A DNA stretch of 48,708 bases. Source: Candidatus Azambacteria bacterium (lineage in GTDB: Bacteria; Patescibacteriota; Minisyncoccia; UBA10092). The translations under genes were made by a program, and so were the position numbers. Each line of letters starts with the position of its first letter. Position 1 is the first letter of the stretch. The notes beneath the pieces are model-generated. The model was not told the origin of the DNA and made no database searches. It saw only the letters and a list, made by a program, of their open reading frames with translations. The stretch is taken from contig JAUSKX010000025.1 in the NCBI GenBank assembly GCA_030646675.1, positions 1 through 48,708 on the forward strand, written 5' to 3'. This document shows positions 306-48,706 of the stretch, in pieces.

Positions 306-446
306 TTTTCCGAAGCTTATGAAAGCATTTTAGCTTGGTTTCAAATTGCATGTTATCAGCCGATCGGAAATAAACATGCAATTTGAATAAAATGCTTTCA
401 TCGGACAGCGAAGCCCCGCGCTGGCGGGGCGAGCGCGCGAGGAAAG
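306..446 (+). repeat. 141-nt structured repeat, copy A: a long imperfect hairpin plus a GC hairpin, beginning 8 nt after the rsmA stop
   Basis: Near-identical to the reverse complement of 28467-28606. The arms ccgaagcttatgaaagcattttagcttggtttcaaattgcatgtt and aacatgcaatttgaataaaatgctttcatcgg pair with each other. They are followed by the hairpin GCCCCGC-GCTG-GCGGGGC. Confidence 0.85.
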
Positions 447-2835: not shown

Positions 2836-4398
2836 ATGAGCTTTTTTATAAAAAATAAAAAATATTTCTATTCGCTCTTGTTGGTGGCGGTTGTTTTTAG
2901 TTTTGCGCTTTTACCGCCGCTGGCGGCTTTGGCGGAAGCCAATATTAAAGCTCCGGACGACTCTTCCAAAGCCGACGGCGGCGGCATAGTGTCGTGGCTC
3001 ACCGGAAAATCCATTCTCTTTGTTTCAAGCACCATCAGCTGGCTTTTCGGCGCTTTATTCGGAGTAATTCTTTATATAGAAGCGCAAATTATTGACTATG
3101 TTCTTTCGCCGGTTAATTTTCCTTTCGTCGGCGCCAATATAGTTAAAGTCGGCTGGGGCATTACGCGCGATTTGGCGAATATGTTTTTCATTTTGATTCT
3201 TCTGGTCATCGCTTTCGCCACTGTTTTGAAAATTGACTCCTATGCCATAAAACAACTTTGGTTTAAAACGCTCGTTGCCGCGCTCTTGATAAACTTCAGC
3301 CTGGTTATTGCCGGCTTGGTAATTGATTTCACTCAAGTTTTAACGACATTTTTCCTGAAGCAAGCGGTCGGCGGAAGCGGATTCGGAACAATCACTACCC
3401 GCCTGGCCTCCAGTATGCAAATTCTTAATTTCTATAATCCGGCGGCGCCCGGAAGTATTACCGGGGGCATAGCTCAATTTGGCGAAAGCGCCATAGCGGC
3501 GGTAATTGGAATAATATTGTCATTAGTAGGCCTCGTTATTACGGTCTTTGTTTTCGGCGCCACCGCCATATTTCTGGTTGTCAGAATTATCTGGATTTGG
3601 TTTTTGCTGATTGTCGCGCCCTTCGCCTGGATGCTTTGGATTTTGCCGGCGACCAGCGGCTATTTCAAACAATGGTGGGATAAGTTTATAAGCTGGACTT
3701 TTTTCGCCCCCGCTTACGCTTTTATGATTTATCTTTCGCTTTCCATTTTTGACGCTAATGGCAGATTCATGGCCGGCAATCTTCCCGCTAATTCAAGTGC
3801 AACTTGGGGAGTCGCGGTTCCGGGCATGTTAACAACCATCGCCATGCCGGCTGCTATCTTTCAATGGATTTTGGTTATCGCGCTGATGTTCGGCTCGCTG
3901 ATTGTGGCGAAATCAATTGGAGTTTTGCCGGGTAAATTAATCGACGCAGTAACCGGAGCAACAAAAGGCGCGGCAAGAGCAACGGCGCTTTCTGGTGTAA
4001 AAACATATGGTCACATAGCAACCGCTATTAGCAATATTGGAGCCAGCCGTCCGCCGGGTTTCGTGAGAACGATAACCGCCCCAATAAGAGGTATTGCTAC
4101 CGCCACGGGAATAAAAAGATTGGGTGCTTTGGCCACTGGCGCTAAAGGCGGCGTATACACGGCTCCTCTAAAATCCACTCCCAACAACCCATTAAAAGCC
4201 ATCACAAATGGCGCCGTAAAAGGTTCTGGCTTATGGAAAAATGATATTAAAGATTGGCAATGCGCATACGACCCAGCAATACAGGTTAGGTCAAAGAAAA
4301 AGCCAACATACGCATGCCCACAGGCACGAACAGTGCCTGGAAATCATCCCCAAACCGTTCCCCCAGGTGGCAATGATGTCGCCTGGATAGAAGTTTAA
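2836..4398 (+). CDS. Polytopic membrane protein, TrbL/VirB6-like
   Basis: 520 aa with an N-terminal signal/TM and then roughly 7-8 hydrophobic spans, followed by a Gly/Ala/Thr-rich tail ending in a 2-Cys segment. The architecture and the position upstream of VirB3/VirB4-like genes fit VirB6/TrbL. No sequence search was done. Confidence 0.55.
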   Translation: MSFFIKNKKYFYSLLLVAVVFSFALLPPLAALAEANIKAPDDSSKADGGGIVSWLTGKSILFVSSTISWLFGALFGVILYIEAQIIDYVLSPVNFPFVGANIVKVGWGITRDLANMFFILILLVIAFATVLKIDSYAIKQLWFKTLVAALLINFSLVIAGLVIDFTQVLTTFFLKQAVGGSGFGTITTRLASSMQILNFYNPAAPGSITGGIAQFGESAIAAVIGIILSLVGLVITVFVFGATAIFLVVRIIWIWFLLIVAPFAWMLWILPATSGYFKQWWDKFISWTFFAPAYAFMIYLSLSIFDANGRFMAGNLPANSSATWGVAVPGMLTTIAMPAAIFQWILVIALMFGSLIVAKSIGVLPGKLIDAVTGATKGAARATALSGVKTYGHIATAISNIGASRPPGFVRTITAPIRGIATATGIKRLGALATGAKGGVYTAPLKSTPNNPLKAITNGAVKGSGLWKNDIKDWQCAYDPAIQVRSKKKPTYACPQARTVPGNHPQTVPPGGNDVAWIEV

Positions 4399-4420
4399 TT
4401 TTAATTTGTAAAATCTAAAA

Positions 4421-5125
4421 ATGATATCTTTTAAAGACTTAACTGAGCAAAAAATATCGGAAAAATATAACGGCCTTTCACAAGGTCTTAAGGATGCCTT
4501 GTCGTCCGCAAATACTTCAGTTGTTATAGAAAATATTGCCGCAAAATATCAGCTGGACAAAGAAAAAACCGAAATGCTTGTTCAACTTGTCGGGTTGGTA
4601 ATTCTTGGATTCGCAGGCCTTGAAGATATGAAAAAAGAAATGAAAGAAACGATAGAGATTGATTCTAAAATTATTCCGTTAATTACAGATGAAATCCGTC
4701 AAAAAATATTTGCGCCGCTTATGAATTTTTTACCGAAAGTGCCGGTGCCTGCGGTGAGCAAAGTCGAACCGCCGACAGTTGCCACCGACCGATATCGCGA
4801 ACCCGCGGCGGGAAGTCCGGGAGTTGTTGATTTGAGAAACCAACCCAAGCCAGCGCCCGTTCCAGTAAAACCCTCTGTAGTTATCCCCCCCAGGCCGATT
4901 GCCCCGCCCGTGGTGAGTAAAATCGAACCACCGGCTCCTATTTTGCCTAAACCCATCCAGCGACCACCGTTGATAGAAGCTGAACCACATAAAGCTCCTA
5001 TTTCTATTCCCGTGCCCGCGCCGTTATCAAGAATGCCCCAAGTTATATTGAGGTCGCCCGGACTGCCGCCAACCGATTTGCCGCGCGATATTTTGGATTT
5101 AAGAAAAGATAAAGGAGAATTTTAA
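4421..5125 (+). CDS. Proline-rich single-TM protein
   Basis: 234 aa with one hydrophobic segment (LVQLVGLVILGFAGL). The C-terminal half is about one third Pro and carries a duplicated VSK(V/I)EPP motif (nt 4753-4773 and 4912-4932). The composition recalls TonB/VirB10 linkers, but only the composition. Confidence 0.55.
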   Translation: MISFKDLTEQKISEKYNGLSQGLKDALSSANTSVVIENIAAKYQLDKEKTEMLVQLVGLVILGFAGLEDMKKEMKETIEIDSKIIPLITDEIRQKIFAPLMNFLPKVPVPAVSKVEPPTVATDRYREPAAGSPGVVDLRNQPKPAPVPVKPSVVIPPRPIAPPVVSKIEPPAPILPKPIQRPPLIEAEPHKAPISIPVPAPLSRMPQVILRSPGLPPTDLPRDILDLRKDKGEF

Positions 5126-6211: not shown

Positions 6212-7943
6212 TCAAGAAAACATCCGCAACGCCGCTTCCGCCCTGCGCGATATTTTGGCGCCGGCGGCCTTGGAAATCGCGCCCGGATTTTTGCGACTGA
6301 ATAAAAAACTGGCGCGCGTTTTCTTTGTTTTCAATTATCCGAGATTTTTGAACACCAACTGGTTTTCCGAAGTTATTAATTTGGATAAGACATTGGATAT
6401 AAGCTTCTACATTCATCCGATTGATACCGGTTCGGCGCTGAAGAATTTGAGAAAAAAAGTCGCCGAAGTTGAATCGGAACTGGCCATGCGCGATGAAAAA
6501 GGACTGGTTCGCGACCCGATGCTTGAAACCGCGTATCAGGACTTGGAAGATTTAAGGGACAAACTCCAGCAGGCGAGAGAAAAGTTTTTCAAATTCGGCC
6601 TCTATATAACAATATATGGAAATTCCCTTGAGGATTTGGATAAAATAGAAACATCATTGCGCTCTATTTTGGACGCGAAATTGGTGTATAGCAAAGCGGC
6701 GATATACCAGCAGGACAGCGGATTTGAATCCACATTGCCGCTGGCAACCGACAAGCTTGCTATAAACACGGCGATGAATTCAAGCCCCATAGCCGCCACT
6801 TTTCCCTTTGTTTCTTCAGATTTAACTTCCGACAGCGGTATTTTATACGGAATAAATCGGCATAATAATTCATTGATTCTTTTCGACAGATTTTCTCTTG
6901 AAAATGCCAACACCGTAATCTTCGGCAAATCCGGCGGCGGCAAATCCTACGCCGCGAAACTGGAAATTCTGCGCTCCTTGATGTTCGGGACCGATGTAGT
7001 AATCATCGACCCGGAAAATGAATATCAATATCTGACGGAAACTATCGGCGGCGCTTTCATAAAAATATCACTCACTTCCGAAAATCATCTGAATCCTTTT
7101 GACCTGCCTCCGGCCCAAGAAGGCGAGAACCCTGCCGATATTTTAAGAGCTAATATTATAAACTTAGTCGGCCTGTTGCGGTTGATGTTCGGCGGCTTGA
7201 CGCCGGAAGAAGACGCCATCATTGACAGCGCCGTAACTCAGACTTATGCCAGTCGCGATACCACCCCGACTATGTCCGATTTAAAAGTAGTTTTAGACAG
7301 TATGGCCGGAGCCGAATCGTTAAGCCTCCGTTTGGAAAAATACGTCACGGGTTCTTATGCCGGCTTTTTAAACAATCCCACCAATGTTGAAATTAAAAAC
7401 AAATTGGTCGACTTTAGCATAAGAGACATGGAGGAAGAATTAAGACCGGTGGCAATGTTTATAATTTTGCATTTCATTTGGAATCTGGTCCGTTCGGAAT
7501 TGAAAAAGAGAATTTTAATGGTTGACGAGGCGTGGTGGCTGATGAAAAACGACGACGGCGCCTCCTTTTTGTTCGGCATCGCCAAACGGGCGAGAAAATA
7601 TTTCCTGGGTGTGACAACCATCACGCAAGATGTAAATGATTTTTTGAATTCGTCTTACGGTAAGCCGATTTTGACCAATTCGTCGCTTCAATTTTTATTC
7701 AAACAATCGCCAACCAATATAGAAACCGTTCAAAAAACATTTAATCTGACTGATGAGGAAAAATTCCTGCTTCTTGAATCTGATGTCGGCGAGGGGCTGT
7801 TTTTTGCCGGTTCAAAACATGTGGCCATTAAAGTTATCGCGTCATACACGGAGGACCAAATTATCACTTCCGACCCGGCCCAGCTTTTACAAATTGAACA
7901 GGCAAAAAAAGAATTGGAAAAGGCGGAAGCCATGATTCCATGA
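6186..7943 (+). CDS. VirB4-type T4SS ATPase
   Basis: Walker A is VIFGKSGGGKSYAAK and Walker B is RILMVDEAWWL. The N-terminal block YPRFLNTNWFSEVI...LDISFYIHP and the FLGVTTITQD motif are typical of VirB4/TraE/PrgJ-like ATPases. Confidence 0.85.
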   Translation: MNPMPFNNNQENIRNAASALRDILAPAALEIAPGFLRLNKKLARVFFVFNYPRFLNTNWFSEVINLDKTLDISFYIHPIDTGSALKNLRKKVAEVESELAMRDEKGLVRDPMLETAYQDLEDLRDKLQQAREKFFKFGLYITIYGNSLEDLDKIETSLRSILDAKLVYSKAAIYQQDSGFESTLPLATDKLAINTAMNSSPIAATFPFVSSDLTSDSGILYGINRHNNSLILFDRFSLENANTVIFGKSGGGKSYAAKLEILRSLMFGTDVVIIDPENEYQYLTETIGGAFIKISLTSENHLNPFDLPPAQEGENPADILRANIINLVGLLRLMFGGLTPEEDAIIDSAVTQTYASRDTTPTMSDLKVVLDSMAGAESLSLRLEKYVTGSYAGFLNNPTNVEIKNKLVDFSIRDMEEELRPVAMFIILHFIWNLVRSELKKRILMVDEAWWLMKNDDGASFLFGIAKRARKYFLGVTTITQDVNDFLNSSYGKPILTNSSLQFLFKQSPTNIETVQKTFNLTDEEKFLLLESDVGEGLFFAGSKHVAIKVIASYTEDQIITSDPAQLLQIEQAKKELEKAEAMIP

Positions 7944-7955
7944 TAAAATAAACAT

Positions 7956-8390
7956 ATGCCAATAGCTGAAACGTTTAAAAACAAAATAACCGAAAAGTCC
8001 AAAAAAACCGAAAATGCCGAAGGGGCTTCTATTGACTCAATGGAATGGCTGATACTTTTTTTGGCCGCCGGTTATATTGATGTTCTTTTTATTCTTATAA
8101 CAATTATTGGTTTTATACCCTTCGTCGGCCAAGTGACCTATGTCATTTTGAATCCAATTTTAAACATGATAGCCACTGGTATTTTTTGGTTTTATTTGCA
8201 GAATAAGGGCCTCGGCGGCTATTGGTGGTTAGCCTTCGGCGGAGGATTGGCGGGATTAGTTCCTGTCGTCAATTGGTTCAGTTGGATAGTGTCGGTATTC
8301 GTTCTTTACGGCTTGGTAAAGGCAGAAAAAATCCCACTGGCCGGCGAAGCTATAAAAAAAGCCGCTGAAACGGCGTCAAAAATAAAATGA
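7956..8390 (+). CDS. Small 4-TM membrane protein, unknown function
   Basis: 144 aa with four hydrophobic spans and a basic, helical C-terminal tail. It has an ATGA overlap with the next gene. Confidence 0.55.
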   Translation: MPIAETFKNKITEKSKKTENAEGASIDSMEWLILFLAAGYIDVLFILITIIGFIPFVGQVTYVILNPILNMIATGIFWFYLQNKGLGGYWWLAFGGGLAGLVPVVNWFSWIVSVFVLYGLVKAEKIPLAGEAIKKAAETASKIK

Positions 8391-9435: not shown

Positions 9436-10044
9436 ATGAAACACATAACACGTAACACAAAACTGATAATATTAATGGCTATTTTGTTTTTTGTTTCATG
9501 TTTTATGTTTTATGATTCAACGGCGGCGCAAGTTCAGCTTGAAACCGGGTTGCCGAACATCCCCGGCAACCGGCTTGATGCGGGCAAGGAATTGCCCCAA
9601 TATATCAATTATCTTTTCATTTTCGGATTAGGCGCCATTACTATTCTGGCGCTGGCACAAATGATGTCCGGGGGCATCCAATATATCCTCGCCGCCGGGA
9701 ATGTTGCCCAAACCGCGGAAGCAAAAAACACCATCCAACAAGCCCTTCTCGGCTTGGGATTATTATTGGCTTCTTATCTTCTTTTAAACACTATTAATCC
9801 CGACCTGGTAAATCTAAGAAATCCCAACCTCACTCCCGCGCAATTTAAAGGAAGTACAGCTGTGCCACCCAACACGATTGGCGGCGGAGGGGAAAGTTAC
9901 CAATGGACAATAATACCAATGAATAAATACTGTAAGGATGTCTTAGGGGCAGGTTGGGTTGGAGTTGGCGGCAATCTCTGTCAACCCCCCATACCTAGCT
10001 TATCCCATGATTGTTGCGGTTATTTTCCAAACAATCCAAAATAA
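9436..10044 (+). CDS. T4SS pilin-like protein (VirB2/TrbC-type) with a Cys-rich C-terminal extension
   Basis: Long signal peptide, then TM1 (INYLFIFGLGAITILALAQMM), the loop AAGNVAQTAEAKNTIQQA, and TM2 ending LLNTINPDLV. This is the layout I associate with the CPR T4SS-pilin family. The extra 70-aa tail carries 4 Cys. Confidence 0.55.
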   Translation: MKHITRNTKLIILMAILFFVSCFMFYDSTAAQVQLETGLPNIPGNRLDAGKELPQYINYLFIFGLGAITILALAQMMSGGIQYILAAGNVAQTAEAKNTIQQALLGLGLLLASYLLLNTINPDLVNLRNPNLTPAQFKGSTAVPPNTIGGGGESYQWTIIPMNKYCKDVLGAGWVGVGGNLCQPPIPSLSHDCCGYFPNNPK

Positions 10045-10045
10045 T

Positions 10046-11026
10046 ATGTCTAAAAAGACTTTTTACATAATTTTATCAATACTGGCCGGACTTGTTATAG
10101 TCGGCGGTTTGATTTGGTATTTCTTTTTTAAGCCATCAACACCGGCGCCAACCGATAGCGCTGGATTTACTTTACCGGGCCAAGAAATAACCGCTGGATT
10201 GGAACCAATCAGCGAAGGGCCCGCTGTCTCGGCGCATTTTGTTGGCGATATTCTTTTATTCTATGATTTTTCCGGCCAACTCTGGCAATTAAACAGCGGA
10301 GAATTGAAACCATCTCTATCGGCCCAACAGACGGCCGAAAACCCTAAGCCGGGGACTAAATCAATCGCTTTTTCGCCCGACGGCAAAAAAATTGCTTATT
10401 ATATTTCTGATTTAAAAAACAATTCATTATTTATTAGCGACGCCGACGGCAAGAATCAAAAAACTTTGTTCCAAAACTTTCCATTAAGGGATATTATTTT
10501 GAGCTGGCCCAAAACAAATCAAATAGCGATTACCTCAAAACCAAGTGGTCTTGTGGCCGGGGGATTGTGGACATTTGATATTATCACTTTAAAATTAACT
10601 AAAATCCTTGATAATTTACCCGGACTGGAGGTGATTTTTTCGTCAAGTGGAGACAATTTCATCTATTCTTTTGTCGACCCAAATGGTCAAAATCCGATTT
10701 TAATGGCTTTCAAAAAAGGCGTCTCCAAAAATCAGAACATTTCAACCATGGTTGATAAATGCGCATGGGCCGGCGACTCTATAAATATATATTGCGCCGT
10801 TCCAAAATCATGGCCCGATTCGGTCGTTTTGCCGGACGATTACTATAAGAGCGCCATATCAACCATCGACGACATTTGGAAAATTAATGCCGAAACCGGC
10901 GCGAAAAATGTAATTTTTGAAAATGTGGGGGACGCATCCAACCTTGCGGCAAGTGGGGGTGAAGATAATTTGATTTTTATTCTAAAAAACAGCGGGTTTT
11001 TGTATAAGCTAAAACTAACCCCCTAA
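10046..11026 (+). CDS. Membrane-anchored TolB-like (PD40-type) beta-propeller protein
   Basis: I chose the start at ATG 10046 (MSKKTFYIILSILAGLVIVGGLIWYFF is a TM anchor) rather than the ORF-track 9959, which overlaps the pilin gene. IAFSPDGKKIAYYISD...LFISDADGKNQKTL are PD40/TolB-like blades. Confidence 0.6.
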   Translation: MSKKTFYIILSILAGLVIVGGLIWYFFFKPSTPAPTDSAGFTLPGQEITAGLEPISEGPAVSAHFVGDILLFYDFSGQLWQLNSGELKPSLSAQQTAENPKPGTKSIAFSPDGKKIAYYISDLKNNSLFISDADGKNQKTLFQNFPLRDIILSWPKTNQIAITSKPSGLVAGGLWTFDIITLKLTKILDNLPGLEVIFSSSGDNFIYSFVDPNGQNPILMAFKKGVSKNQNISTMVDKCAWAGDSINIYCAVPKSWPDSVVLPDDYYKSAISTIDDIWKINAETGAKNVIFENVGDASNLAASGGEDNLIFILKNSGFLYKLKLTP

Positions 11027-11048
11027 ATCCCCCTTATCAAGTGGGTTT

Positions 11049-11510
11049 TTATTCAACAAACTTAATCACCACGCGCCTTTGCAGGCCTTCGCCGGTACTT
11101 TCGGTTTTTATGTCCGGATGCGCCGCAAGTTCCGCGTGGATAATTCTCCTATTGTAAGCCGACATCGCCTCCAAAGTTACCGGCTGTTTATAAAACCTGG
11201 CGCGGCGAGCGGCTTTTTTGGCGAGTTCTTTTAAAGACTCCTCTTTCGAACTTCTGTAATTATTAATATCCAAGCGTAAAAAAAACGCCTCGCCCAGTTG
11301 TTTTTTTATAAGCAAGCGCAATACGGCTTCGAAAGCGCCTATATTTTTACCGCCCTCGCCAATATATAAACTGGCGTCTTGAACGGATAATGAAACGTTG
11401 AGCGAGCCGCCGGCAGTTGCTTCAATGGTTTTAATTTCAAAATCAATGATTCCGGCTTTATTGAAAAAGTCGTTAATAACATCTTTAATTTTTATTAAGT
11501 TCTCTTCCAT
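11049..11510 (-). CDS. khpB: Jag/KhpB-like RNA-binding protein (KH + R3H)
   Basis: The C-terminal R3H signature is NRRIIHAELAAHPDIKTESTGEGLQRRVVIK. It sits downstream of yidC as in the conserved rpmH-rnpA-yidC-jag cluster. Confidence 0.8.
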   Translation of the reverse strand: MEENLIKIKDVINDFFNKAGIIDFEIKTIEATAGGSLNVSLSVQDASLYIGEGGKNIGAFEAVLRLLIKKQLGEAFFLRLDINNYRSSKEESLKELAKKAARRARFYKQPVTLEAMSAYNRRIIHAELAAHPDIKTESTGEGLQRRVVIKFVE

Positions 11511-12195
11511 TGTTTTGATTGAGATATTGCTGGAGTATGGTTAAAAGTGAAACCACAATCCAATAAAGAGGGAGCGCCGCGGGCAACGACCAAAAAATCA
11601 CAATGCTCAACACCGGTCCCAAATAAAGCATTTGTTTAGCCATCGTACTGGCAAAATCAGTCGCTTTATTGGCGGCGGGAAGAGGCATAATCATTTTTGT
11701 TTGAAAATACTGTAAAACGCCCGATATAACAGCTAATACCACGCTTCTTTGGGATAAATCAAATACCCCCAAAAAAACCAACTGAAGAGAACCTGGCGCC
11801 GGAATAAAAGAATAAAGCGAACCCATGTTCAAATTGGCGCTATTTAAAAACACTTGCCACAAAGCAATAATAATTGGTATTTGAATAATTATCGGCAAAA
11901 GACCCGCGAAGGGACTGATTTTGTTTTCGGAATAAAGCGCCATTAATGCCTTGGCCTGCCCCTCCTTATCGCCCTTAAATCTTCTTTTAATCTCTTCAAT
12001 TTGAGGTTGGATTTTGTTTAAAACCTTCTGGTTTTTAATTCCTTTATTTGTGAGCGGCCAAATAATGAGTCTGATTAAAATTGTCAGAATAATAATAGAG
12101 ACGCCAAAATCATGACCGGGAACAATATTGTATAAAAAAATCAAGCCGTTAAACAACGGTTGATAAAAAAATGTGTTAAATAAATAGGAGAGCAT
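11485..12195 (-). CDS. yidC: Membrane protein insertase YidC (short form)
   Basis: 236-aa polytopic protein. YidC/Oxa1-like motifs are present (RLIIWPLT, KxQxxQPxxxEIKxRFKGD, ISPFAGLLPIIIQIPI). It has the conserved position between rnpA and jag. Confidence 0.85.
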   Translation of the reverse strand: MLSYLFNTFFYQPLFNGLIFLYNIVPGHDFGVSIIILTILIRLIIWPLTNKGIKNQKVLNKIQPQIEEIKRRFKGDKEGQAKALMALYSENKISPFAGLLPIIIQIPIIIALWQVFLNSANLNMGSLYSFIPAPGSLQLVFLGVFDLSQRSVVLAVISGVLQYFQTKMIMPLPAANKATDFASTMAKQMLYLGPVLSIVIFWSLPAALPLYWIVVSLLTILQQYLNQNNGRELNKN

Positions 12196-12520
12196 TGTTT
12201 ATTAGTATGTTCTTAAAATTATTCAAAATCGCCTGATAGGCGGATTTTTTTAGCGCCGGCTTCGGCCAAACAATAATATCGAATCCCGGTTTTATGTTTT
12301 TTAACAAAAAATGAGCCACAGCCCTAAGGCGGCGCTTGATTAAGTTTCTGGAAACGGCCTTTGGCGCGAAAGCGTTGCTGACGACAAAACCGAATCGGGA
12401 ATGTTTCTTAAAATTTTTCAAAAATCTAATCTTTATAAGGTTACTCTCCGAGGTTTTTCCGTCATTAAACACTTTCTTAAAATCCTTATCCGCTTTTAAG
12501 CAATTTATTTTAGGCAGCAT
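12176..12520 (-). CDS. rnpA: Ribonuclease P protein component
   Basis: 114-aa basic protein. The central block SRFGFVVSNAFAPKAVSRNLIKRRLR is RnpA-like. It lies directly downstream of rpmH. Confidence 0.85.
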   Translation of the reverse strand: MLPKINCLKADKDFKKVFNDGKTSESNLIKIRFLKNFKKHSRFGFVVSNAFAPKAVSRNLIKRRLRAVAHFLLKNIKPGFDIIVWPKPALKKSAYQAILNNFKNILINNALLFI

Positions 12521-12526
12521 AACAAA

Positions 12527-12661
12527 TTAAACTGATAAACGCTGTCTTTTTTTGCGGCGGCGTCTCTCAATTGTTTTTCGTCCGCCGGGACTCTTCATCC
12601 TCTTTAAAAATCCGTGCTTTTTCTTTCTTTTACCCTTCTTGGGTTTAAATGTTTTACTCAT
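12527..12661 (-). CDS. rpmH: 50S ribosomal protein L34 (below the ORF-track size cutoff)
   Basis: My hand translation of the minus strand gives MSKTFKPKKGKRKKKHGFLKRMKSPGGRKTIERRRRKKRQRLSV (44 aa). This is the classic L34 pattern (KxHGFxxRM...GRxxxxRRRxKxR), divergent from dnaA. Confidence 0.85.
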   Translation of the reverse strand: MSKTFKPKKGKRKKKHGFLKRMKSPGGRKTIERRRRKKRQRLSV

Positions 12662-12819
12662 GATGAAAATACTTTAACATAAAATCAAATATTGAGTCAA
12701 ACATTTCCTGTGTTTTATACTTTCCCACAAATAATCCACACGTTATCAACTCTTTTGCGGTGAAAATATTTTTAAAAATTAATTATATCGGTGCTATACT
12801 CGGATAGTATTATAAAAAT
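12662..12819. promoter_or_regulatory. rpmH-dnaA intergenic region with DnaA-box-like sites (upstream half of a possible bipartite origin, plus the dnaA promoter)
   Basis: TTTCCCACA, TAATCCACA and TTATCAACT are clustered at about 12721-12760, each 1-2 mismatches from TTATCCACA. TATACT at 12795-12800 is a possible -10. Confidence 0.4.
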
Positions 12820-14196
12820 ATGGAACTAGACGAACTTTGGAAGGCGGCCTTGGGAGAAATAGAACTCCAGGTTTCAAAAGCGAATTTTAAAACGTGGTTA
12901 CAAAATACCTCCATCGCCGATAAGAGGGGAGGAGTTATTACCGTGGCCGTTCCGAATAGTTTTACAAAAGAATGGTTGGAAAATAAGTATCATAAATTTA
13001 TTTTAAGGTCGCTAAGGAATCTCGAGTCGGAAATTAAAGAGGTGAACTACCAAATTAAACAAAATCCTTCGGCTGAAACCCAAAAGGGGAAACTAGCCCC
13101 CAGAGAAGATGTGTTAAAAAAACAATTGGATTTTCAGGAGTTGAATATTGATGCCGCGACCAATTTAAATCCGCATTATACATTTGATAATTTTATAGTT
13201 GGCTCTTCAAATGAACTGGCGCATGCCGCCGGTTTGGCGGTAACTAAAAATCTTGGAAGAAAATATAACCCCCTATTTATCTATGGCGGAGTAGGGCTTG
13301 GTAAAACTCATTTAATTCAAGCCATAGGAAATGCCGTAAAAAAAGAAAACCCTTCAAAAAAAATAAAATACGTCACCTCCGAAAGATTTACCTCTGAAGT
13401 AATTTCCGCGTTAAGGGCCGGCTCTTTAAGACCGACCGATATAGATGATTTCAAAAAACGATGGAGAGAAATTGATTTATTAATAATAGACGACATCCAA
13501 TTCCTGGCCGGCAAGGAAAAAACGCAGGACGAGTTTTTTCATACTTTCAACGCTCTTTATAATGCCGGCAAACAAATAATTTTATCATCAGACAGGCCGC
13601 CAAGGTCGATACAAACACTGGAAGAGCGCCTACGTTCTCGTTTCGAGGGAGGAATGATAGCCGATATTTCTTATCCGGATTTAGAAACCAGAATAGCCAT
13701 ATTAAAGGCCAAAGCGGGAGAAAAAGGAATAGAACTTTCGGATGAAGTGTTGGAATATGTGGCTCAAAACATTAAAAAAAATGTCAGAGAGCTGGAGGGC
13801 GCGTTAAATAGGCTGGTGGCCGCCAACTACCAAACAAATATGGCCGCATTGAGCGTTGCGGATGTTAAAAAGTTATTAAATTCAATTCTAAATACGCCTA
13901 AAAAGAGCACGAATATTAAAAGTATAATAAAAGCTGTCGCGGAATTTTATGATATCAGTGAAAAAGAAGTATTGGATAGGTCGCGGAAAAAGGAAATTGT
14001 TAAGCCTCGCCAAGTTATCATGTATTTATTAAGGGAAGAGTTAAAAAGTTCCTTTCCTTTTATTGGGTTTAAAATCGGAGGAAGGGACCATACAACAGCT
14101 ATCCACGCGTGTGAAAAAATAAAAAGAGAAATAGAAAAAGATTCTAATTTAAACGACGAAATAAATTTAATAAAAGAAAAACTTTATTTGATTTAG
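12820..14196 (+). CDS. dnaA: Chromosomal replication initiator DnaA
   Basis: Walker A is GGVGLGKTHL, with LLIIDDIQFL and the sensor motifs. The C-terminal DNA-binding helix region is VKPRQVIMYLLRE...IGGRDHTTAIHA. Confidence 0.95.
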   Translation: MELDELWKAALGEIELQVSKANFKTWLQNTSIADKRGGVITVAVPNSFTKEWLENKYHKFILRSLRNLESEIKEVNYQIKQNPSAETQKGKLAPREDVLKKQLDFQELNIDAATNLNPHYTFDNFIVGSSNELAHAAGLAVTKNLGRKYNPLFIYGGVGLGKTHLIQAIGNAVKKENPSKKIKYVTSERFTSEVISALRAGSLRPTDIDDFKKRWREIDLLIIDDIQFLAGKEKTQDEFFHTFNALYNAGKQIILSSDRPPRSIQTLEERLRSRFEGGMIADISYPDLETRIAILKAKAGEKGIELSDEVLEYVAQNIKKNVRELEGALNRLVAANYQTNMAALSVADVKKLLNSILNTPKKSTNIKSIIKAVAEFYDISEKEVLDRSRKKEIVKPRQVIMYLLREELKSSFPFIGFKIGGRDHTTAIHACEKIKREIEKDSNLNDEINLIKEKLYLI

Positions 14197-17871: not shown

Positions 17872-19077
17872 ATGAAGGTTATTACAGAAAAAACAAAAGT
17901 AGAATCACTTTTAACCAGAGCGGTTTCCGAAGTTATCGTCAGCGCTCATTTGAAAGAAGGGCTCGAATCCGGAAAAAAATTGAGAGTGAAATTTGGAATC
18001 GACCCGACCGCGCCCGATATTCATTTGGGGCACGCGGTTTCGTTGATGAAACTAAAAGAGTTTCAAAATCTTGGCCACCAAGCGGTTTTAATCATTGGCG
18101 ACTTTACGGCCAGAATTGGCGACCCCACGGGAAGAATTGAAGCTAGAAAAATATTGTCGCCCCAGGCGATAAAACAAAATTTAAAAGGATATTTAAAACA
18201 AGCAGGTAAAATAATTGATATAGAAAAAACAGAGATTCGCTATAATAATGAGTGGTTTGGTAAAATGGGGGCGGTGGAATTTTATAATCTGGCCGGAAAA
18301 GTCACCGTTCAGCAGATTATTAAAAGAGAAGATTTTAAAAAAAGAATTCAAAACGACCAAAATCTCACATTGAACGAAATGATGTATCCGATTTTTCAAG
18401 GATACGACTCGGTTATGGTTAAGGCCGATATTGAAATTGGCGGCGAAGACCAAAAAGTTAATCTATTAATGGGGCGCAGGGTTCAGCGGGCATATGGGAT
18501 GCCGGAGCAAGATATTTTAACATTATGGCTTCTTGAGGGGACAGACGGCACTAAGAAAATGAGTAAGAGCAGCGGTAATTTTATTGGCGTATCCGAAAAG
18601 CCGGAAATAATGTTTGGGAAAATTATGTCCATTCCGGACGCTCTTATTGTTAAATATTTTAGGGCGCTTACCGCGGTTCCGGATTTAAATATTGATAAAT
18701 TTGAAGAAGAATTGAAAAACCCGAAAATTAATCCTAGGGATATCAAAAAAATATTAGCCGGCGAAATTGTTAAGATTTATCATGGAGAGAAAAAAGCGGA
18801 AAAAGCGATGGCGGAATTTGAGAGGGTTTTTACCAAGAAAGAATTACCGGAAAACATTCAAGAAATTACTATTACCGCAAAGAAGCGCGATATTGTAGAA
18901 TTATTGATTCAATTGCATTTAGCGCTATCCAAGGGTGAAGCCCGCCGTTTGGTCATCGGAAATGCAGTAAAAGTGGATGGTAAAATAATCAGCGATTTCA
19001 AAGCGGAAATTAATGCGCGCTCGGGAATGATTGTGCAAGCCGGCAAGAGGCACTTCGCGCGAATTAAAACAAAATAA
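17872..19077 (+). CDS. tyrS: Tyrosyl-tRNA synthetase
   Basis: Class I signatures are present: PDIHLGH (HIGH) and KMSKSSGN (KMSKS). There is a C-terminal S4-like domain (SKGEARRLVIGNAVKVDG). Confidence 0.9.
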   Translation: MKVITEKTKVESLLTRAVSEVIVSAHLKEGLESGKKLRVKFGIDPTAPDIHLGHAVSLMKLKEFQNLGHQAVLIIGDFTARIGDPTGRIEARKILSPQAIKQNLKGYLKQAGKIIDIEKTEIRYNNEWFGKMGAVEFYNLAGKVTVQQIIKREDFKKRIQNDQNLTLNEMMYPIFQGYDSVMVKADIEIGGEDQKVNLLMGRRVQRAYGMPEQDILTLWLLEGTDGTKKMSKSSGNFIGVSEKPEIMFGKIMSIPDALIVKYFRALTAVPDLNIDKFEEELKNPKINPRDIKKILAGEIVKIYHGEKKAEKAMAEFERVFTKKELPENIQEITITAKKRDIVELLIQLHLALSKGEARRLVIGNAVKVDGKIISDFKAEINARSGMIVQAGKRHFARIKTK

Positions 19078-19104
19078 AATAACCCCGCTTAGCGGGGTTA
19101 TTTT
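19076..19104. terminator. Bidirectional intrinsic terminator (AAAATAACCCCGC-TTA-GCGGGGTTATTTT)
   Basis: A perfect GC-rich hairpin flanked by an A-run and a T-run, placed between the convergent tyrS and the ruvC-side small ORF. Its core is CCCCGCTTAGCGGGG. Confidence 0.7.
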
Positions 19105-20302: not shown

Positions 20303-21322
20303 TTACAGTAAATTCTGATTTTCCGGAGGGAGTTGAAAGCCCAAATGCTCGTAGGCGAGTTTGGTGGCGATGCGGCCGCGGGCGGTGCGCTGTAGAAAAC
20401 CGATTTGGAGCAGGTACGGCTCGTTAATATCTTCAATCGTATCCAGCTCTTCCGAAGTGGCAGCGGCCAGCGCCTGCAGTCCAACCGGCCCGCCGTTAAA
20501 TTTCTTGATAATCGCCTCAATCAAGCGCCGATCGGTTGATTCGAGGCCGAGTTCATCAACTTCCAAAAGAGCCAGCGCCTTTTGGGTGATATTTTTATTT
20601 ATTATTCCTTCTCCTTCAACCTCGGCGTAATCGCGCACTCTTTTAAGTAAGCGATTGGCTACGCGGGGGGTGCATCTTGAAGAGGTGGCGATTTGCCTCA
20701 AAGCGTCGGGTTCCGTTTGGAGGTTCATCAGCGAGGCGGACCTTTTTAAAATTTTTTCAATATCTTCTAGGTTATAAAAATCCAATCGGAAAGTGACGCC
20801 AAATCTGGAGCGGAGCGGATTGGTTAACAGGCCGACCCGGGTGGTTGCCGCAATCAACGAAAACGGAGGCAAGTCCAATTGAAGGGTTCTTGCCGAAGGG
20901 CCCTTTCCTATAATAATATGAAGCATGCGGTTTTCCATCGCCGGATAGAGAATCTCTTCAACTGTTTTGTTAAGCCGGTGCGCTTCGTCTATAAATAATA
21001 TATCGCCGCTGTTGAGATTGGTTAAAATAGAAGCCAGGTCGCCGACTTTCTCAATCGCCGGCCCGGATGTTATTCTTATGTTAGCTCCCATTTCTCTGGC
21101 TACTATATAGGCTAGCGTGGTTTTGCCTAGGCCGGCCGGGCCGTATAAAAGCAGATGGTCAATCGGTTCGGAGCGTTTTTTTGCCGCTTCCAAAAGAATC
21201 TTCAGGTTGGCCTTGACCTTATCTTGACCAATATACTCATCCCAGACGCGGGGACGCAGCGCTTGGTCGAGCGTCTTGTCTTCCGGCTTCAGTTTTGAAG
21301 TTGTCGCGTTTATATCGTCCAT
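20303..21322 (-). CDS. ruvB: Holliday junction branch-migration ATPase RuvB
   Basis: Recognisable motifs are LRPRVWDEYIGQ, Walker A GPAGLGKTT, Walker B LFIDEAHRL, the sensor TTRVGLLTNPLRSRF, and a winged-helix C-terminus. Confidence 0.95.
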   Translation of the reverse strand: MDDINATTSKLKPEDKTLDQALRPRVWDEYIGQDKVKANLKILLEAAKKRSEPIDHLLLYGPAGLGKTTLAYIVAREMGANIRITSGPAIEKVGDLASILTNLNSGDILFIDEAHRLNKTVEEILYPAMENRMLHIIIGKGPSARTLQLDLPPFSLIAATTRVGLLTNPLRSRFGVTFRLDFYNLEDIEKILKRSASLMNLQTEPDALRQIATSSRCTPRVANRLLKRVRDYAEVEGEGIINKNITQKALALLEVDELGLESTDRRLIEAIIKKFNGGPVGLQALAAATSEELDTIEDINEPYLLQIGFLQRTARGRIATKLAYEHLGFQLPPENQNLL

Positions 21323-21351
21323 TTGACAAAAGTGTTTATTTTTAGTATAAT
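21323..21351 (+). promoter_or_regulatory. Perfect-consensus sigma70 promoter TTGACA-17-TATAAT with no downstream plus-strand CDS
   Basis: TTGACA is at 21323-21328 and TATAAT at 21346-21351, with an exact 17-nt spacer. It begins 1 nt after the ruvB start codon, on the opposite strand. Confidence 0.6.
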
Positions 21352-21357
21352 CAGTAA

Positions 21358-21523
21358 GACTTTGAGAACAAAGTCGTTCTTAATGACCTCGAGGCAATAA
21401 AGGCTTTACACACTATTTGGCCTTTCCGGGGACTTTACTTGTTTGGGTGGCCCGGTTCCGACTGGGTTATTACACAAATTGGCCCTATCCCTTCAAGCCT
21501 GCTTGAAGGACTATTGCCTCGAG
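21358..21523 (+). ncRNA. Candidate structured small RNA of unknown class
   Basis: It would start about 7 nt after the consensus -10. There is a 5' hairpin GACTTTG-AGAA-CAAAGTC (21358-21375). A 12-bp closing stem CTCGAGGCAATA/TATTGCCTCGAG (21388-21399 with 21512-21523) encloses an 8-bp hairpin CCTTCAAG-CCTG-CTTGAAGG (21490-21509). There is no coding potential. Confidence 0.4.
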
Positions 21524-21527
21524 ATTA

Positions 21528-23195
21528 TTAAGAGCGAAAACTGCCAAGAACTCTCTCCGCCTCCTCAATGGTGGTAACGCCGTCGAGGATTTTTATAACC
21601 GCGTCTTGCGCCATGGTGACCATTCCGGATTTTAGGGCGACTTCTTTCAGTTCCGCTTCAGCCGGCGATTTCAAAATCATTTTTTCAATCTCATCAGTGA
21701 TTTCAAATAATTCCAACACAGCTACCCGCCCCGAATAGCCGCTATGGCAATCCTGACAGCCCTGCGGTTCCAATATCTGCGATTTTTCATCCAGTTTATT
21801 TTTTAGCTCGGCTCTTGCCGGCAAATTTGCGATTATTTTTTTAAAATCCTGCAATTCTTCTTTGGTTAAGGGTCTTTTTTTGGCGCATTTCGGACAAACT
21901 CTTCTTAAAAGCCGCTGCGCGATTACCAGATTGATGGCTGGCGCTATAATTGGCGGCTTAACTCCCAAATCTATTAAACGAGGGACGGCTCCAATAGCGT
22001 CGTTAGTGTGCAAAGTTGAGAAAACAAGATGTCCGGTCAAGGCCGCGTGCATAGAGATTTCCGCGGTTTCATAATCGCGAATTTCTCCTACAAGAATGAC
22101 GTCCGGGTCTTGGCGGACAATTGATTTCAGGCCGTTATCAAAAGTGTACCCCTTCTCCGGTTCAACCTGTGTTTGTGAAATTCCAGCAATGCGATATTCG
22201 ATAGGGTCTTCAATGGTAATGATTTTAATATCAGGAGTAAGAATTTTTTTAATAAAGGCGTAAAGAGTTGTGGTTTTTCCCGAGCCGGTCGGGCCGGTGG
22301 AAAGAATCATTCCGGTTGGCTTCTGTAATTCCCGGTTAATTATTGTTAAGTCGTCTTCCCTTATTCCTAAATCTTGAAGATTTATTTTTACTACGCGCGG
22401 GTCCAAAATTCTCATCACAATGTTTTCGCCGTAGGCGCCCGGCAATGCGGAAGTTCTGATTTCAATGGCTTCACCGCCGTTGGTTATGCCGAATCTTCCA
22501 TCTTGGGCTTTTTCGCGGATATTTAATTTCAAACCCGACAGTAATTTGATTCTGTTGAGCGCCAACAAGTAGGTTGCCGAAGGGATTTCAACAATGTTTT
22601 CCAAAATTCCATCAAGGCGGAATCGGATGCGAACATTGTTTTTTTCCGGTTCGAAATGAATATCCGATGCTTTTAGAATCAACGCTCCCGCTAAAACCGC
22701 CTCAACTATTTGAGACGCCCTTGCTTCGAATAATCCTTCCAAAACTTTTTGCAGAGTTTCAATGCCGGTAATTTTTTTCTGCAACTCAACTAAAGCGTCG
22801 GTTGAAATTTCAACTTGGCCGGTTATTTCTTTTACCGTTTCCAGAGATGAATAATGAGCGAGCGCCTTCTTTAAACTGCTTTCTGAAATAATAAAAATTT
22901 TCACTTCATAACCGGATTTTTGAAAATCAGAAATCAATAATTGAGTTTCTTTGTCGTTGGGGCTCAAAACACCAAGGTGTAGTATTTTGTATTCTTCATT
23001 AATGGCGACGGCGCCGGCTTTTATAGCTTTTTCTTTCGGTATTAATTTTAGCGCGTCGACTTCAATTGGGATAAAAGACAGGTCAAGATAGGGAAAATTG
23101 GTTTTTCCCGCCAAAAGCTTCGCGCGCCCCTCTTCTTCTTCGCGATGGACATTGGCTAAAAGCTCTTCTTGTTTTTCTTCCCCTTTAAAAACCAT
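21528..23195 (-). CDS. pilB: GspE/PilB-family secretion/pilus assembly ATPase
   Basis: Walker A is GPTGSGKTTTLYA, with Asp and His boxes (IRDYETAEI, GHLVFSTLHTN) and a tetracysteine motif (CPKC...CQDCH). No pilC or pilM is adjacent in the window. Confidence 0.9.
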   Translation of the reverse strand: MVFKGEEKQEELLANVHREEEEGRAKLLAGKTNFPYLDLSFIPIEVDALKLIPKEKAIKAGAVAINEEYKILHLGVLSPNDKETQLLISDFQKSGYEVKIFIISESSLKKALAHYSSLETVKEITGQVEISTDALVELQKKITGIETLQKVLEGLFEARASQIVEAVLAGALILKASDIHFEPEKNNVRIRFRLDGILENIVEIPSATYLLALNRIKLLSGLKLNIREKAQDGRFGITNGGEAIEIRTSALPGAYGENIVMRILDPRVVKINLQDLGIREDDLTIINRELQKPTGMILSTGPTGSGKTTTLYAFIKKILTPDIKIITIEDPIEYRIAGISQTQVEPEKGYTFDNGLKSIVRQDPDVILVGEIRDYETAEISMHAALTGHLVFSTLHTNDAIGAVPRLIDLGVKPPIIAPAINLVIAQRLLRRVCPKCAKKRPLTKEELQDFKKIIANLPARAELKNKLDEKSQILEPQGCQDCHSGYSGRVAVLELFEITDEIEKMILKSPAEAELKEVALKSGMVTMAQDAVIKILDGVTTIEEAERVLGSFRS

Positions 23196-32075: not shown

Positions 32076-32983
32076 AACTTTCAGGACTGGGCCGCGGTTT
32101 GGAATCGTTAATTCCAAGAACAACGCCGTTAAGCCAACAACAAAACACAGCAGACAGAAGCGCGGAACAGCCGCGCCATAAAGAAAGCATTTTTTTGCTT
32201 GAAGTCGATAAGGTAAAAGAAAATCCGCTTCAGCCGCGCCGCGATTTTGACGAAACTGAATTAAGGTCTTTGGCCGATTCCATCCGCGAACACGGTGTTT
32301 TACAGCCGATTATTGTTACAAAAATAGAAGAAGAAAATTTATCGGGTATAAAAGTTTCTTATGAGTTGATAGCGGGCGAGAGACGGCTTAGAGCCGCGAA
32401 AATGTCGGGGCTTGATTTTGTTCCGGCGATAATCAGGAAAAAAACCGACGATAAGGAAAGGTTAGAACTTGCGTTAGTTGAAAATGTTCAACGCGCCGAT
32501 TTAAATGCCATAGAGAAAGCCCGGAGCTTTGAACGTTTAACCGGAGAATTCGGTTTTACGCAAAAACAAGTTGCCGAAAGAATCGGCCAATCAAGAGAAT
32601 TGGTCGCCAATACTATTCGTCTTTTACAATTGCCCATTGAAATCATGCGAGCGGTTGAAATGGGAAAAATTTCAGAAGGCCATGCCAGGGGGATTTTGTC
32701 GGTTGATGATGAAAATCAGAGAATGGCGCTTTATAACGAAATAATAACGAAAAATCTGACGGTAAGAGCTGTGGAAAGTTTAGGGAGAAAAATGAAAGGC
32801 GTCTCAAAGAGAACGAATAGCGGCTTTCTTGACCCGGAATCGAAAATTTTAGAATCGCGGCTGGAAGATTTTTTGGGGACTCGGGTTAAACTGGCCAAGG
32901 AAGACGGAAAGGGCAGTATTTTAATCGAATTTTATTCTCCCGAAGAATTCAATTCTATTATAGACAAAATTTTTAAGTCCTAG
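32072..32983 (+). CDS. parB: Chromosome partitioning protein ParB/Spo0J
   Basis: Recognisable motifs are GLGRGLESLIP, the ParB box GERRLRAAK, and the HTH QKQVAERIGQSRELVANTIRLL. It has an ATGA overlap with parA. Confidence 0.9.
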   Translation: MKLSGLGRGLESLIPRTTPLSQQQNTADRSAEQPRHKESIFLLEVDKVKENPLQPRRDFDETELRSLADSIREHGVLQPIIVTKIEEENLSGIKVSYELIAGERRLRAAKMSGLDFVPAIIRKKTDDKERLELALVENVQRADLNAIEKARSFERLTGEFGFTQKQVAERIGQSRELVANTIRLLQLPIEIMRAVEMGKISEGHARGILSVDDENQRMALYNEIITKNLTVRAVESLGRKMKGVSKRTNSGFLDPESKILESRLEDFLGTRVKLAKEDGKGSILIEFYSPEEFNSIIDKIFKS

Positions 32984-46901: not shown

Positions 46902-47080
46902 GGATGGAGATAGTTGTTTTATAAGATTTTGGCCTAAACAATTTTATAAGGGAGTTCTATATTGTTCCGGCTCGTGGGCCGTGAACTGCGGACACCCACT
47001 TGGCTTGATGCCAAAATTATCTTAGAGATGGCTTCTCCAGCCACTAAAAAATCCCGCTTTAGCGGGGGTTTTTAGTGGCT
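46902..47080 (+). ncRNA. Candidate structured small RNA or 3'UTR element ending in a terminator
   Basis: There is a possible extended -10 TGTTATATT at 46887-46895. The stems are TAAGATTTTGGC/GCCAAAATTATCTTA, AACAAT/ATTGTT and GTGGG/CCCAC. A long terminator follows at 47039-47080. No ORF is present. Confidence 0.3.
47039..47080. terminator. Bidirectional terminator: outer stem AGCCACTAAAAA/TTTTTAGTGGCT around the inner hairpin CCCGC-TTTA-GCGGG
   Basis: It lies between the convergent ndk (+) and the rpmB-tRNA-Pro unit (-). The inner core is a variant of CCCCGCTTAGCGGGG. Confidence 0.6.
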
Positions 47081-48165: not shown

Positions 48166-48675
48166 ATGCGTACAATACTAAAATATGGCATTAATTGGCT
48201 TAATAAAGCCATAATTGCCTTAATTATACTGGTTTTAGCGCTCAATATGCAGTTCAAGGAGGCCGACGCCGCTTGGAGCTTTGAGGATATCTCGGCCCTA
48301 ATAGAAGATAGGGTGAAAAACATAGGTGATTTGCCCTTGATGAGCGGCAGAGACTCAATTATGGGCGTAAGTGAATCATTGCCGCCCAAAATGCTTAGCG
48401 TTATCTTAACAGCCTATTCTTCAACGGTCGACCAGACCGACGACACGCCGTTTATTACGGCTTCCAACACGCGGACGCGCGATGGCGTTATAGCGGCCAA
48501 CTTTTTGGCTTTTGGCACCAAAGTAAAAATCCCCGGAATTTTCGGCGATAAGGTTTTTACGGTTGAGGACCGAATGGCAAAAAAACATGATGGCAAAATT
48601 GACATCTGGTTTTCTGAAAGATATTTGGCGAAAAAATTTGGTGTCCAAGAAGCCGACGTCCTGATTTTGGAATAA
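48166..48675 (+). CDS. 3D-domain (MltA/RlpA-like double-psi beta-barrel) cell-wall protein
   Basis: I prefer the start at ATG 48166 to the TTG at 48151. It has a TM/signal. LTAYSSTVDQTDDTPFITASNTRTRDGVIAAN...FGTKVKIP...TVEDRM...IDIWF is typical of 3D-domain proteins. Confidence 0.75.
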   Translation: MRTILKYGINWLNKAIIALIILVLALNMQFKEADAAWSFEDISALIEDRVKNIGDLPLMSGRDSIMGVSESLPPKMLSVILTAYSSTVDQTDDTPFITASNTRTRDGVIAANFLAFGTKVKIPGIFGDKVFTVEDRMAKKHDGKIDIWFSERYLAKKFGVQEADVLILE

Positions 48676-48706
48676 AAAATCCCCCGCTTAGCGGGGGATT
48701 TTTTTG
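48676..48706 (+). terminator. Intrinsic terminator AAAAATCCCCCGC-TTA-GCGGGGGATTTTTTT
   Basis: A perfect GC hairpin with a T-run starts immediately after the stop codon. Its core is CCCCGCTTAGCGGGG. Confidence 0.75.

Follow-up and report, generated by a model that had tools for sequence, protein, structure and literature searches.

The window, that is, the whole 48,708-nt stretch of DNA analyzed, is one entire contig of a Candidatus Azambacteria MAG. Two near-identical hairpin copies, copy A on the forward strand (306–446) and copy B on the reverse strand (28467–28606), lie where the original prediction had placed them, as confirmed by the sequence and by probe matches. Within the window, a 21-nt probe and a 16-nt probe taken from the element both matched only copies A and B, and a full covariance-model scan of the window with the filters off found no third copy. 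The gene upstream of copy A is rsmA (Pfam RrnaAD) and the gene upstream of copy B is rpsT (Pfam Ribosomal_S20p); the gaps of 8 nt after the rsmA stop codon and 19 nt after the rpsT stop codon were both given correctly. Copy B separates rpsT from the convergent gene holA. Compared to shuffled sequences, copy A folded at −91.6 kcal/mol (z = −9.8) and copy B at −73.0 kcal/mol (z = −10.4). Independent Logan contigs of the same organism start or end within the shared part of the element, indicating that the repeat is real and breaks assemblies.

The flanks of copies A and B are unrelated in sequence, and in each copy they are inverted repeats of one another (287–311 with 441–465 in A; 28626–28601 with 28472–28447 in B). 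The full units occupy 287–465 (A) and 28447–28626 (B), about 180 nt each, and form a three-way junction closed by about 22 bp. The 141-nt hairpin element of the original prediction was real, but its extent was too short and the locus-specific closing stem had been missed. On the forward strand of copy A, the A-rich 5′ arm of the closing stem P1 (287–311, AGAGAAAATAACAGATTGCTTTTCC) includes the rsmA stop codon (295–297) and ends in an inner TTTCC (307–311) that is conserved family-wide. It is followed by J1/2 (312–318, GAAGCTT; identical in 75 of the 82 family copies) and by the long hairpin P2 (319–401), which has the base helix ATGAAAGCATTTTA/TAAAATGCTTTCAT, a 7-nt bulge that reads GCTTGGT here and GCATGGT in the family consensus, and a distal palindrome (340–387) that is variable and has the tip CCGATCGG. 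J2/3 (402–412) consists of C, GGACAGCGA and the unpaired A412, and leads into the short hairpin P3 (413–430, GCCCCGC-GCTG-GCGGGGC), whose stem varies by allele and whose GCTG loop is conserved; J3/1 (431–441, GAGCGCGCGAG) and the T-rich 3′ arm of P1 (441–465, GGAAAGGCAATCTGTTATTTTGTCT) complete the unit.

On the reverse strand, the 5′ arm of P1 in copy B (28601–28626, GAAAAAAACATCAAATAATTTTTTCC) begins with the last base of the rpsT stop codon (28626–28628). J1/2 and P2 (28511–28600), with GAAGCTT at 28600–28594, are the same as in copy A except for the apical loop (TTAGAACC vs. TATCAGCC). J2/3 and P3 (28483–28510) read C GGACAGTGA and then ATTGCGC-GCTG-GCGCAAT (28500–28483), and J3/1 and the 3′ arm of P1 (28447–28482) read GAGCGCGCGAG (28482–28472) and GGAAAGAATTATTTGATTTTTTATTT, with a 2-nt overlap between the arm and the stop codon of holA (28446–28448). 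Direct reading verified that four P3 pairs are altered on both sides between the copies (G-C to A-T, C-G to T-A twice, and C-G to G-C). The apical loop had been described as the sole other difference, which was not so: C409 of copy A is T in copy B (GGACAGCGA vs. GGACAGTGA, GGACAG[C/T]GA), and the unpaired A412 of copy A accounts for a length difference of 1 nt. The reported lack of a U-run holds for the inner hairpins, but the 3′ arm of the closing stem and the sequence beyond it are T-rich (GTTATTTTG in A, TTTGATTTTTTATTT in B).

Database searches with patterns from the two halves of the element revealed a large family. The pattern for the 5′ half matched 7 copies in 4 Patescibacteria MAGs, and the independent pattern for the 3′ half matched at least 120 metagenome stretches, mostly from groundwater, along with four GC-rich false matches. 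Eighty-two distinct full-length copies were parsed among the matches listed; related loci or stretches compared with the window are designated by L-numbers (L007, L132, etc.). Orthologous proteins of the carrier loci were 60%–84% identical to those of the window, which places the carriers in an Azambacteria-like clade and not in all CPR. Hairpins A and B are thus members of a widespread interspersed repeat, here called type A, in Azambacteria-like Patescibacteria.

No Rfam 15 family matched at the gathering score when both window copies, a short-form copy and a type A plus type B pair were used as queries, and at E values up to 10 only miRNA-like hairpin noise far below the threshold was returned. 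BLASTN found no match to the element in plasmids or phages, and in viral contigs the 3′ pattern gave nothing but a GC-rich false match. Two 19-mer matches in viral contigs were both inside coding sequence and were set aside as chance. Inspection of either strand by eye for hammerhead, twister and K-turn cores found nothing consistent, and a K-turn reading is broken by GCGCAAG variants. Literature searches for a described CPR repeat or motif returned nothing relevant.

The type A unit was 130–212 nt long in the 82 copies (median 148). The AT-rich P1 stem has 22 pairs at the median; its commonest form is AAATAATAAATAAATTAT|TTTCC ... GGAAA|ATGATTTATTTATTATTT, and the consensus has U-G at one position. 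J1/2 has the consensus GAAGCUU. The 14-bp base of P2 is AUGAAAGCGUUUUA/UAAAACGCUUUCAU or the variant CCGCAG.../...CGAGGAC, and it carries the conserved 7-nt bulge GCAUGGU and then a distal hairpin, which is a short GC hairpin in most copies and extends up to the 48-nt palindrome of the window. The J2/3 consensus is C-GGACAGCGA and that of J3/1 is GAGCGCGCGAG. P3 has a 7-bp stem and a conserved GCUG loop, with 47 stem alleles in the 82 copies. Some copies contain an extra hairpin, CCCCGUAUAACAACAAGUUGUAUACGGGG, with a CGAG repeat within J3/1. In L009:5194–5405, L016:2240–2420 and L059:146–327, J3/1 contains a nested conserved hairpin, CCCCGTATAACAACAAGTTGTATACGGGG, flanked on each side by a CGAG repeat, at one shared position in different genomes.

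Conservation of the fold was evident throughout the family. RNAalifold of 50 short-form copies gave three helices, with double changes at 36 of 46 pairs. Under the specified structure, 93.5% of cells paired, compared to 74.6% in column shuffles and 43%–54% with slid partners, and both sides changed at 41 of 49 pairs. This strong covariation upheld the suggestion that the structure is under selection. The junction strands, 71% purine, were invariant in 52–77 of the 82 copies, including in parts unconstrained by the search patterns. Columns of the candidate pairings between junctions (GCUU/GAGC and CAGCG/CGCUG) were invariant or uncompensated.

The fold of one particular strand is conserved, and it is the strand on which the element was originally written. 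In 77 of 82 copies the forward strand was predicted to fold more stably than its complement (mean values −69.0 vs. −61.9 kcal/mol). Counted as cells, not independent events, G-U combinations outnumbered A-C combinations (89 vs. 50, with a further 37 G-U at the P1 position with consensus U-G), and mismatches in the P2 base and P3 were purine-purine in 68 cells and pyrimidine-pyrimidine in 7; in P3 alone the corresponding cell counts were 50 and 1, with tandem G-A/A-G alleles such as GGGAGCC...GGCGACC.

Many of the double changes were CG-to-GC flips, and together with the allele lists they show that whole hairpin modules are exchanged rather than repaired pair by pair. The four compensated pairs do not reflect stepwise compensation between A and B: their P3 stems are two of at least 47 alleles, each found in other genomes (GCCCCGC in L014, L042 and L129; ATTGCGC in L007 and L104). 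Hairpin modules and arms have been reshuffled among copies. At the rsmA site (copy A, L024, L050 and L062) the arms persist and the P2 tip and P3 vary, copies A and B have the P2 tip in common and differ in P3 and arms, and L012 and L042, on one contig, have the arms in common and differ in P2 and P3.

The comparison of orthologous sites demonstrates that gene boundaries have acquired and lost the unit, in either orientation, and that it decays by deletion. At the holA/rpsT junction, the stop codons overlap (TTATAG) without a hairpin in the closest relatives, L132 and L133 (HolA 84% and 83% identical); in L135 the two codons are 2 nt apart, again with no hairpin. Type A is present at this junction in the window and in L007 (HolA 80%) with the same arms and the same P3, and in L136 and L137 with different arms and a second element type; L139 retains one arm plus TTTTCTTC (8 nt), the deletion remnant of an L136-type insertion. 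The genes tsaE and polA overlap in L132 and L135 and are separated by the element in the forward orientation in L100 and in reverse in L028 and L048. The element also lies in opposite orientations at the scpB/dac site of related genomes. At the flipped sites the inner-arm asymmetries turn with the core and the outer arm ends stay. No copy was found in about 47 kb of sequence from relatives. In the window itself, the tsaE/polA spacer (23853–23943) consists of 91 nt of AT-rich DNA with TTTTAAAAT-like inverted and direct repeats.

Direct repeats at the unit boundaries of the 82 copies were at control levels (2-mers, 10 vs. 8.7; 3-mers, 4 vs. 3.6; 4-mers, 1 vs. 0.9), revealing no target-site duplication in a count that a TA duplication could escape, the stem boundary being fuzzy in AT-rich DNA. 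No autonomous copy was recognized: P2 contained no large insertion, and the truncated copies L017 and L097 had no transposase upstream. No transposase, reverse transcriptase or other candidate mobilizing gene adjoined any copy in the window or the fetched loci.

The neighbors of the element are unrelated housekeeping genes, including rpiB, a release factor gene, nusB, gatB, polA, tsaE, scpB, holA and rsmA. Relative to the element and by crude ORF calls in the related loci, the flanking genes of 60 fully flanked copies were (−,−) in 29, convergent in 19, (+,+) in 11 and divergent in 1, so that in co-directional pairs the element was antisense to the mRNA in 29 and sense in 11. At least one gene 3′ end almost always adjoins the element, and about 60% of the abutting genes terminate inside an arm. 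A convergent gene ends at the 3′ arm in about 80% of copies; a co-oriented gene ends at the 5′ arm in only about 55%, and the 3′UTR reading among the original candidates is therefore not general. Of 46 co-directional cases, 31 had the next start codon no more than 60 nt from the core, which leaves no room for a promoter and means that read-through must occur. Neither a scan nor inspection of the consensus found an own or outward promoter in or before the element. Local GC skew, used as a proxy for the replication strand, simply tracks gene orientation. The minimum of cumulative GC skew in the window lies at about 10000–13000, and parA/parB homologues, named after the Pfam annotation of the orthologous loci L132, L135 and L136, lie at 31305–32983; a replication origin near 10000–13000 is possible judging from these sequence features, in which case both window copies would be oriented alike relative to the fork.

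Arm composition was strongly polar, with the left arm 60% A and 27% T (78 of 82 copies) and the right arm 63% T and 22% A (82 of 82). This polarity on either strand provides TAA stops for incoming frames and a U-rich tail on transcripts from both sides. A simple terminator scan called no terminator in the element, yet the 3′ arm is 63% T and is followed by T-runs in copies A and B. The description of the element as not an ordinary terminator was therefore half right; the whole unit has the A-tract, structure and U-tract polarity of a bidirectional terminator. With this polarity, the element may contribute to termination, but many copies lie inside tight gene pairs, and the hairpin cannot be a strong terminator everywhere.

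Diverged elements of the same plan, with a long AT-rich closing stem and a GC-rich branched core, were also present, namely type B, a variant in L077 (4628–4779) and the small type C (L043:2127–2215 and L132 near 7935–8010). The type B core (AAGCGGGUURUGAGCGCGAGCGGGCAUGGU...CGCUGGG...GAGGAAAGCG) shares the GCATGGT bulge and the CGCTGG loop, and elements of the type B plan were found in L025:3883–4027, L100:2628–2774, L034:3790–3929, L136:11148–11292 and L111:6132–6276. Head-to-head pairs of types A and B, spaced 10–30 nt apart, were found repeatedly. The simple terminators of the window have one common GC hairpin, CCCCCGCTTAGCGGGGG, and the same A/T arms; located at 19076–19103, 31138–31165, 47046–47073 and 48675–48702, they constitute a small repeat family with the hairpin CCCC(C)GCTTAGCGGGG(G), and in other genomes short-form elements have a hairpin of this type as their P2 tip.

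Several other features were noted in the window and its relatives. An apparently independent, unannotated structured RNA gene lies at 21323–21540 on the forward strand, antisense to a pilB-like T2SSE gene (21528–23195, reverse strand) and ruvB (20303–21322, reverse strand). It has a perfect TTGACA-17-TATAAT promoter followed by a multibranch RNA of about 165 nt with a 24–26-bp closing stem and many G-U pairs on the forward strand; conservation of both promoter and RNA extends to L132, L135 and L136, and no Rfam match was obtained at E values up to 5. The DnaA-box consensus TTATCCACA occurs at 477–485, shortly past copy A, and recurs just past the 3′ arm, or ahead of a −35-like hexamer, at L005, L097/L017, L113, L096 and L100 (near 2590); the window contains 2 exact sites compared to 0.28 expected, and an association of the motif with promoters is possible. 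L139/L141 and L140/L146, which have identical HolA, carry two unrelated structured modules between ruvA and a tRNA gene (4383–4480), which indicates swapping of terminator-like modules at the strain level.

Among known systems, the Correia elements (CREE) of Neisseria have conserved terminal inverted repeats and a TA duplication, whereas the arms of type A are its most variable part, no duplication was detected and the core is a covarying GC-rich three-way junction; type A also has no sequence similarity to CREE and a host in another phylum. Both are small interspersed repeats (CREE about 100–160 bp) with inverted-repeat ends around a conserved core and an RNA hairpin fold, and both lie at gene boundaries and vary in presence between strains (PMC2649163). 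CREE are described as able to bind RNase III and influence neighboring genes (PMC2649163). ERIC, RUP and BOX elements, as generally known and reviewed (PMC10969869), resemble type A as noncoding imperfect palindromes of about 100–200 nt in transcribed intergenic regions, found in either orientation with insertion polymorphism; unlike them, type A lacks conserved terminal repeats and a target duplication and has covariation and invariant single-stranded junctions.

REP and REPIN sequences share with type A an extragenic location, hairpin formation, multiple copies, within-genome sequence populations and the lack of a target duplication, and roles in termination or mRNA stability have been proposed for them (PMC3116915, PMC3733652). 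REPs are palindromes of 20–40 nt and REPINs two inverted REPs, whereas type A is branched and 130–212 nt long, and its density is low in contrast to that of REP (2 in 48.7 kb of the window and 0 in 47 kb of relatives). The GTAG or CGTC tag given as a REP feature (PMC3733652) was present in 5 and 6 of 82 cores, respectively, and GACG in 30 of 82, depending on the allele; no RAYT gene was found in the window or the fetched loci. PATE elements of IS200/IS605 are marked by subterminal hairpins, a conserved 4–5-nt target/cleavage motif at the left end and no duplication; in type A no duplication was detected, no conserved flank motif was evident and the architecture differs. Traits of a MITE are seen in the small size, the noncoding nature, the 82 copies and the occurrence of filled, empty and remnant sites; its conserved terminal inverted repeats are lacking, since the inverted arms, present in every copy, differ in sequence even within one genome and the conserved part is internal. 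Without a target-site duplication and with variable arms, type A is not a classical MITE, REP or attC. Of the four candidates first offered, a REP/MITE-like mobile hairpin came nearest, given that there are more than 100 copies, that orthologous sites may be filled or empty, that both orientations occur and that assemblies break within the element, although the defining tests for MITE and REP failed. By analogy, type A appears to work most like Correia, ERIC or REPIN-type repeats (PMC2649163, PMC3116915, PMC3733652, PMC6006769).

We consider the chances about even that copies A and B represent a non-autonomous, structure-dependent mobile repeat with terminator-like polarity rather than a private regulatory RNA of rsmA or rpsT. 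A candidate mobilizing or copying machinery acting in trans would recognize the conserved single-strand fold, as DNA or RNA, and modules would be exchanged by recombination or template switching between copies. The host would tolerate insertions at gene ends, where the arms would bring TAA stops and a bidirectional terminator-like or processing hairpin; we infer that the element is tolerated because it mimics such hairpins and supplies stop codons. Several observations speak against a mobile repeat: no mobilizing gene adjoins any copy in the window or the fetched loci, no target duplication was seen, conservation is lowest at the ends, the reverse of what a transposase-bound MITE shows, and unpaired junctions that stay near-invariant in genomes with only 60%–84% protein identity are also expected of an RNA that benefits its host. 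The antisense bias (29 vs. 11) fits neither a 3′UTR role nor an obvious route through an RNA intermediate.

The invariant purine-rich junctions make a dedicated functional RNA a serious rival, although we regard it as unlikely. The forward-strand three-way junction would then bind a protein or ligand, or RNase III would cut the closing stem and free it as a stable small RNA, and the spread of the element would be secondary. All helices covary around the near-invariant junctions, tandem G-A/A-G and G-U pairs occur on one strand only, and optional extra hairpins and tips of variable length are seen, as in many structured RNAs. At a uniform length of about 22 bp, the closing stem has the dimensions of an RNase III substrate, and the same window encodes an independent structured RNA gene with a similar closing stem. 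The main difficulty for this reading is that the orientation is mixed, more often antisense than sense, and the distribution patchy: in co-directional pairs the other strand is in the mRNA 29 times and the forward strand 11 times, a given site may have the element in either orientation, and the element was found neither in close relatives nor in 47 kb of related sequence. Moreover, there is no promoter in or before the element, a neighbor's stop codon lies in or beside the arm, and no Rfam family matches.

It is doubtful that type A is a relic or satellite of a single-stranded DNA transposon in the style of REP/REPIN-RAYT or IS200/IS605 PATE, moved by a HUH (Y1) transposase encoded once elsewhere in the genome that would recognize the folded forward strand and excise and insert it precisely without duplication. 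The absence of a target-site duplication, the clean empty sites with overlapping stop codons intact, the extragenic location and the modules common to copies within a genome all agree with such an origin, as does a strand-specific fold with G-T and G-A pairs, which are tolerated in DNA hairpins too. IS608-type elements are described as recognizing subterminal secondary structures and targeting the lagging-strand template (PMC6006769), and type A has an orientation bias of about 70%–80% relative to gene direction and GC skew. This skew is not separable from gene orientation, though, and, should most genes run in the direction of replication, the conserved strand would be on the leading-strand rather than the lagging-strand template. 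No Y1 or RAYT gene lies near any copy, neither a conserved GTAG/CGTC tag nor a 4–5-nt target motif was found at the boundaries, and the three-way junction is unlike known REP or IS200 ends.

A similarly tentative place belongs to something new, either an undescribed mobile type, with the conserved one-strand three-way junction as its putative active module, that uses neither terminal-repeat recognition nor target duplication, or a new protein-binding RNA domain built by CPR bacteria into their terminators. An undescribed mobile type might move through an RNA intermediate, as a bacterial SINE-like retro-repeat or ribozyme-assisted element, or by a new structure-specific single-stranded DNA enzyme confined to CPR bacteria.

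It is very unlikely that the copies are ordinary bidirectional intrinsic terminators that evolved in place at each locus and resemble one another incidentally. Type A does resemble such terminators in its A-rich 5′ and U-rich 3′ flanks around a GC-rich structure and in its position at gene 3′ ends, often between convergent genes and in only 1 of 60 copies between divergent genes, and the simple terminators of the window (19076, 31138, 47046 and 48675) are similarly built and match the covariance model weakly, through their arms only. In contrast to intrinsic terminators, type A has a conserved three-way junction of 100–140 nt that is common to its loci and also lies between genes that must be cotranscribed; many copies sit inside tight gene pairs, and some separate genes whose counterparts in relatives overlap. 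Unrelated loci, in genomes with 60%–84% protein identity, share about 45 nt of identical unpaired junction sequence, and independent origin cannot produce such cores.

Chance similarity, a decaying local duplication or integron attC sites, which are also folded imperfect palindromes after genes, can hardly account for the element even though the window holds two copies only, as at least 100 homologues with pairing maintained rule out chance likeness and a decaying duplicated hairpin, while the cores lack the attC motifs GTTRRRY/RYYYAAC (1 of 82 contains GTTA or TAAC) and the neighbors are syntenic housekeeping genes, not cassettes.

Genomes of CPR/Patescibacteria are tiny and tightly packed, and we know of almost no characterized noncoding elements in them. 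Type A is a widespread structured element with strong covariation in at least 100 sequences and no entry in Rfam, and between essential genes it has repeatedly been gained, inverted, reshuffled and lost. Short-read assemblies of its hosts break up at the element, and because of this fragmentation and a possible shift of gene 3′ ends, annotation pipelines should know the element. If type A is functional, it would represent a new RNA or single-stranded DNA fold that is testable with a covariance model. If the non-autonomous mobile repeat that we favor is instead selfish, even minimal genomes would sustain a structure-dependent mobile repeat outside the rules of MITE, REP and attC.
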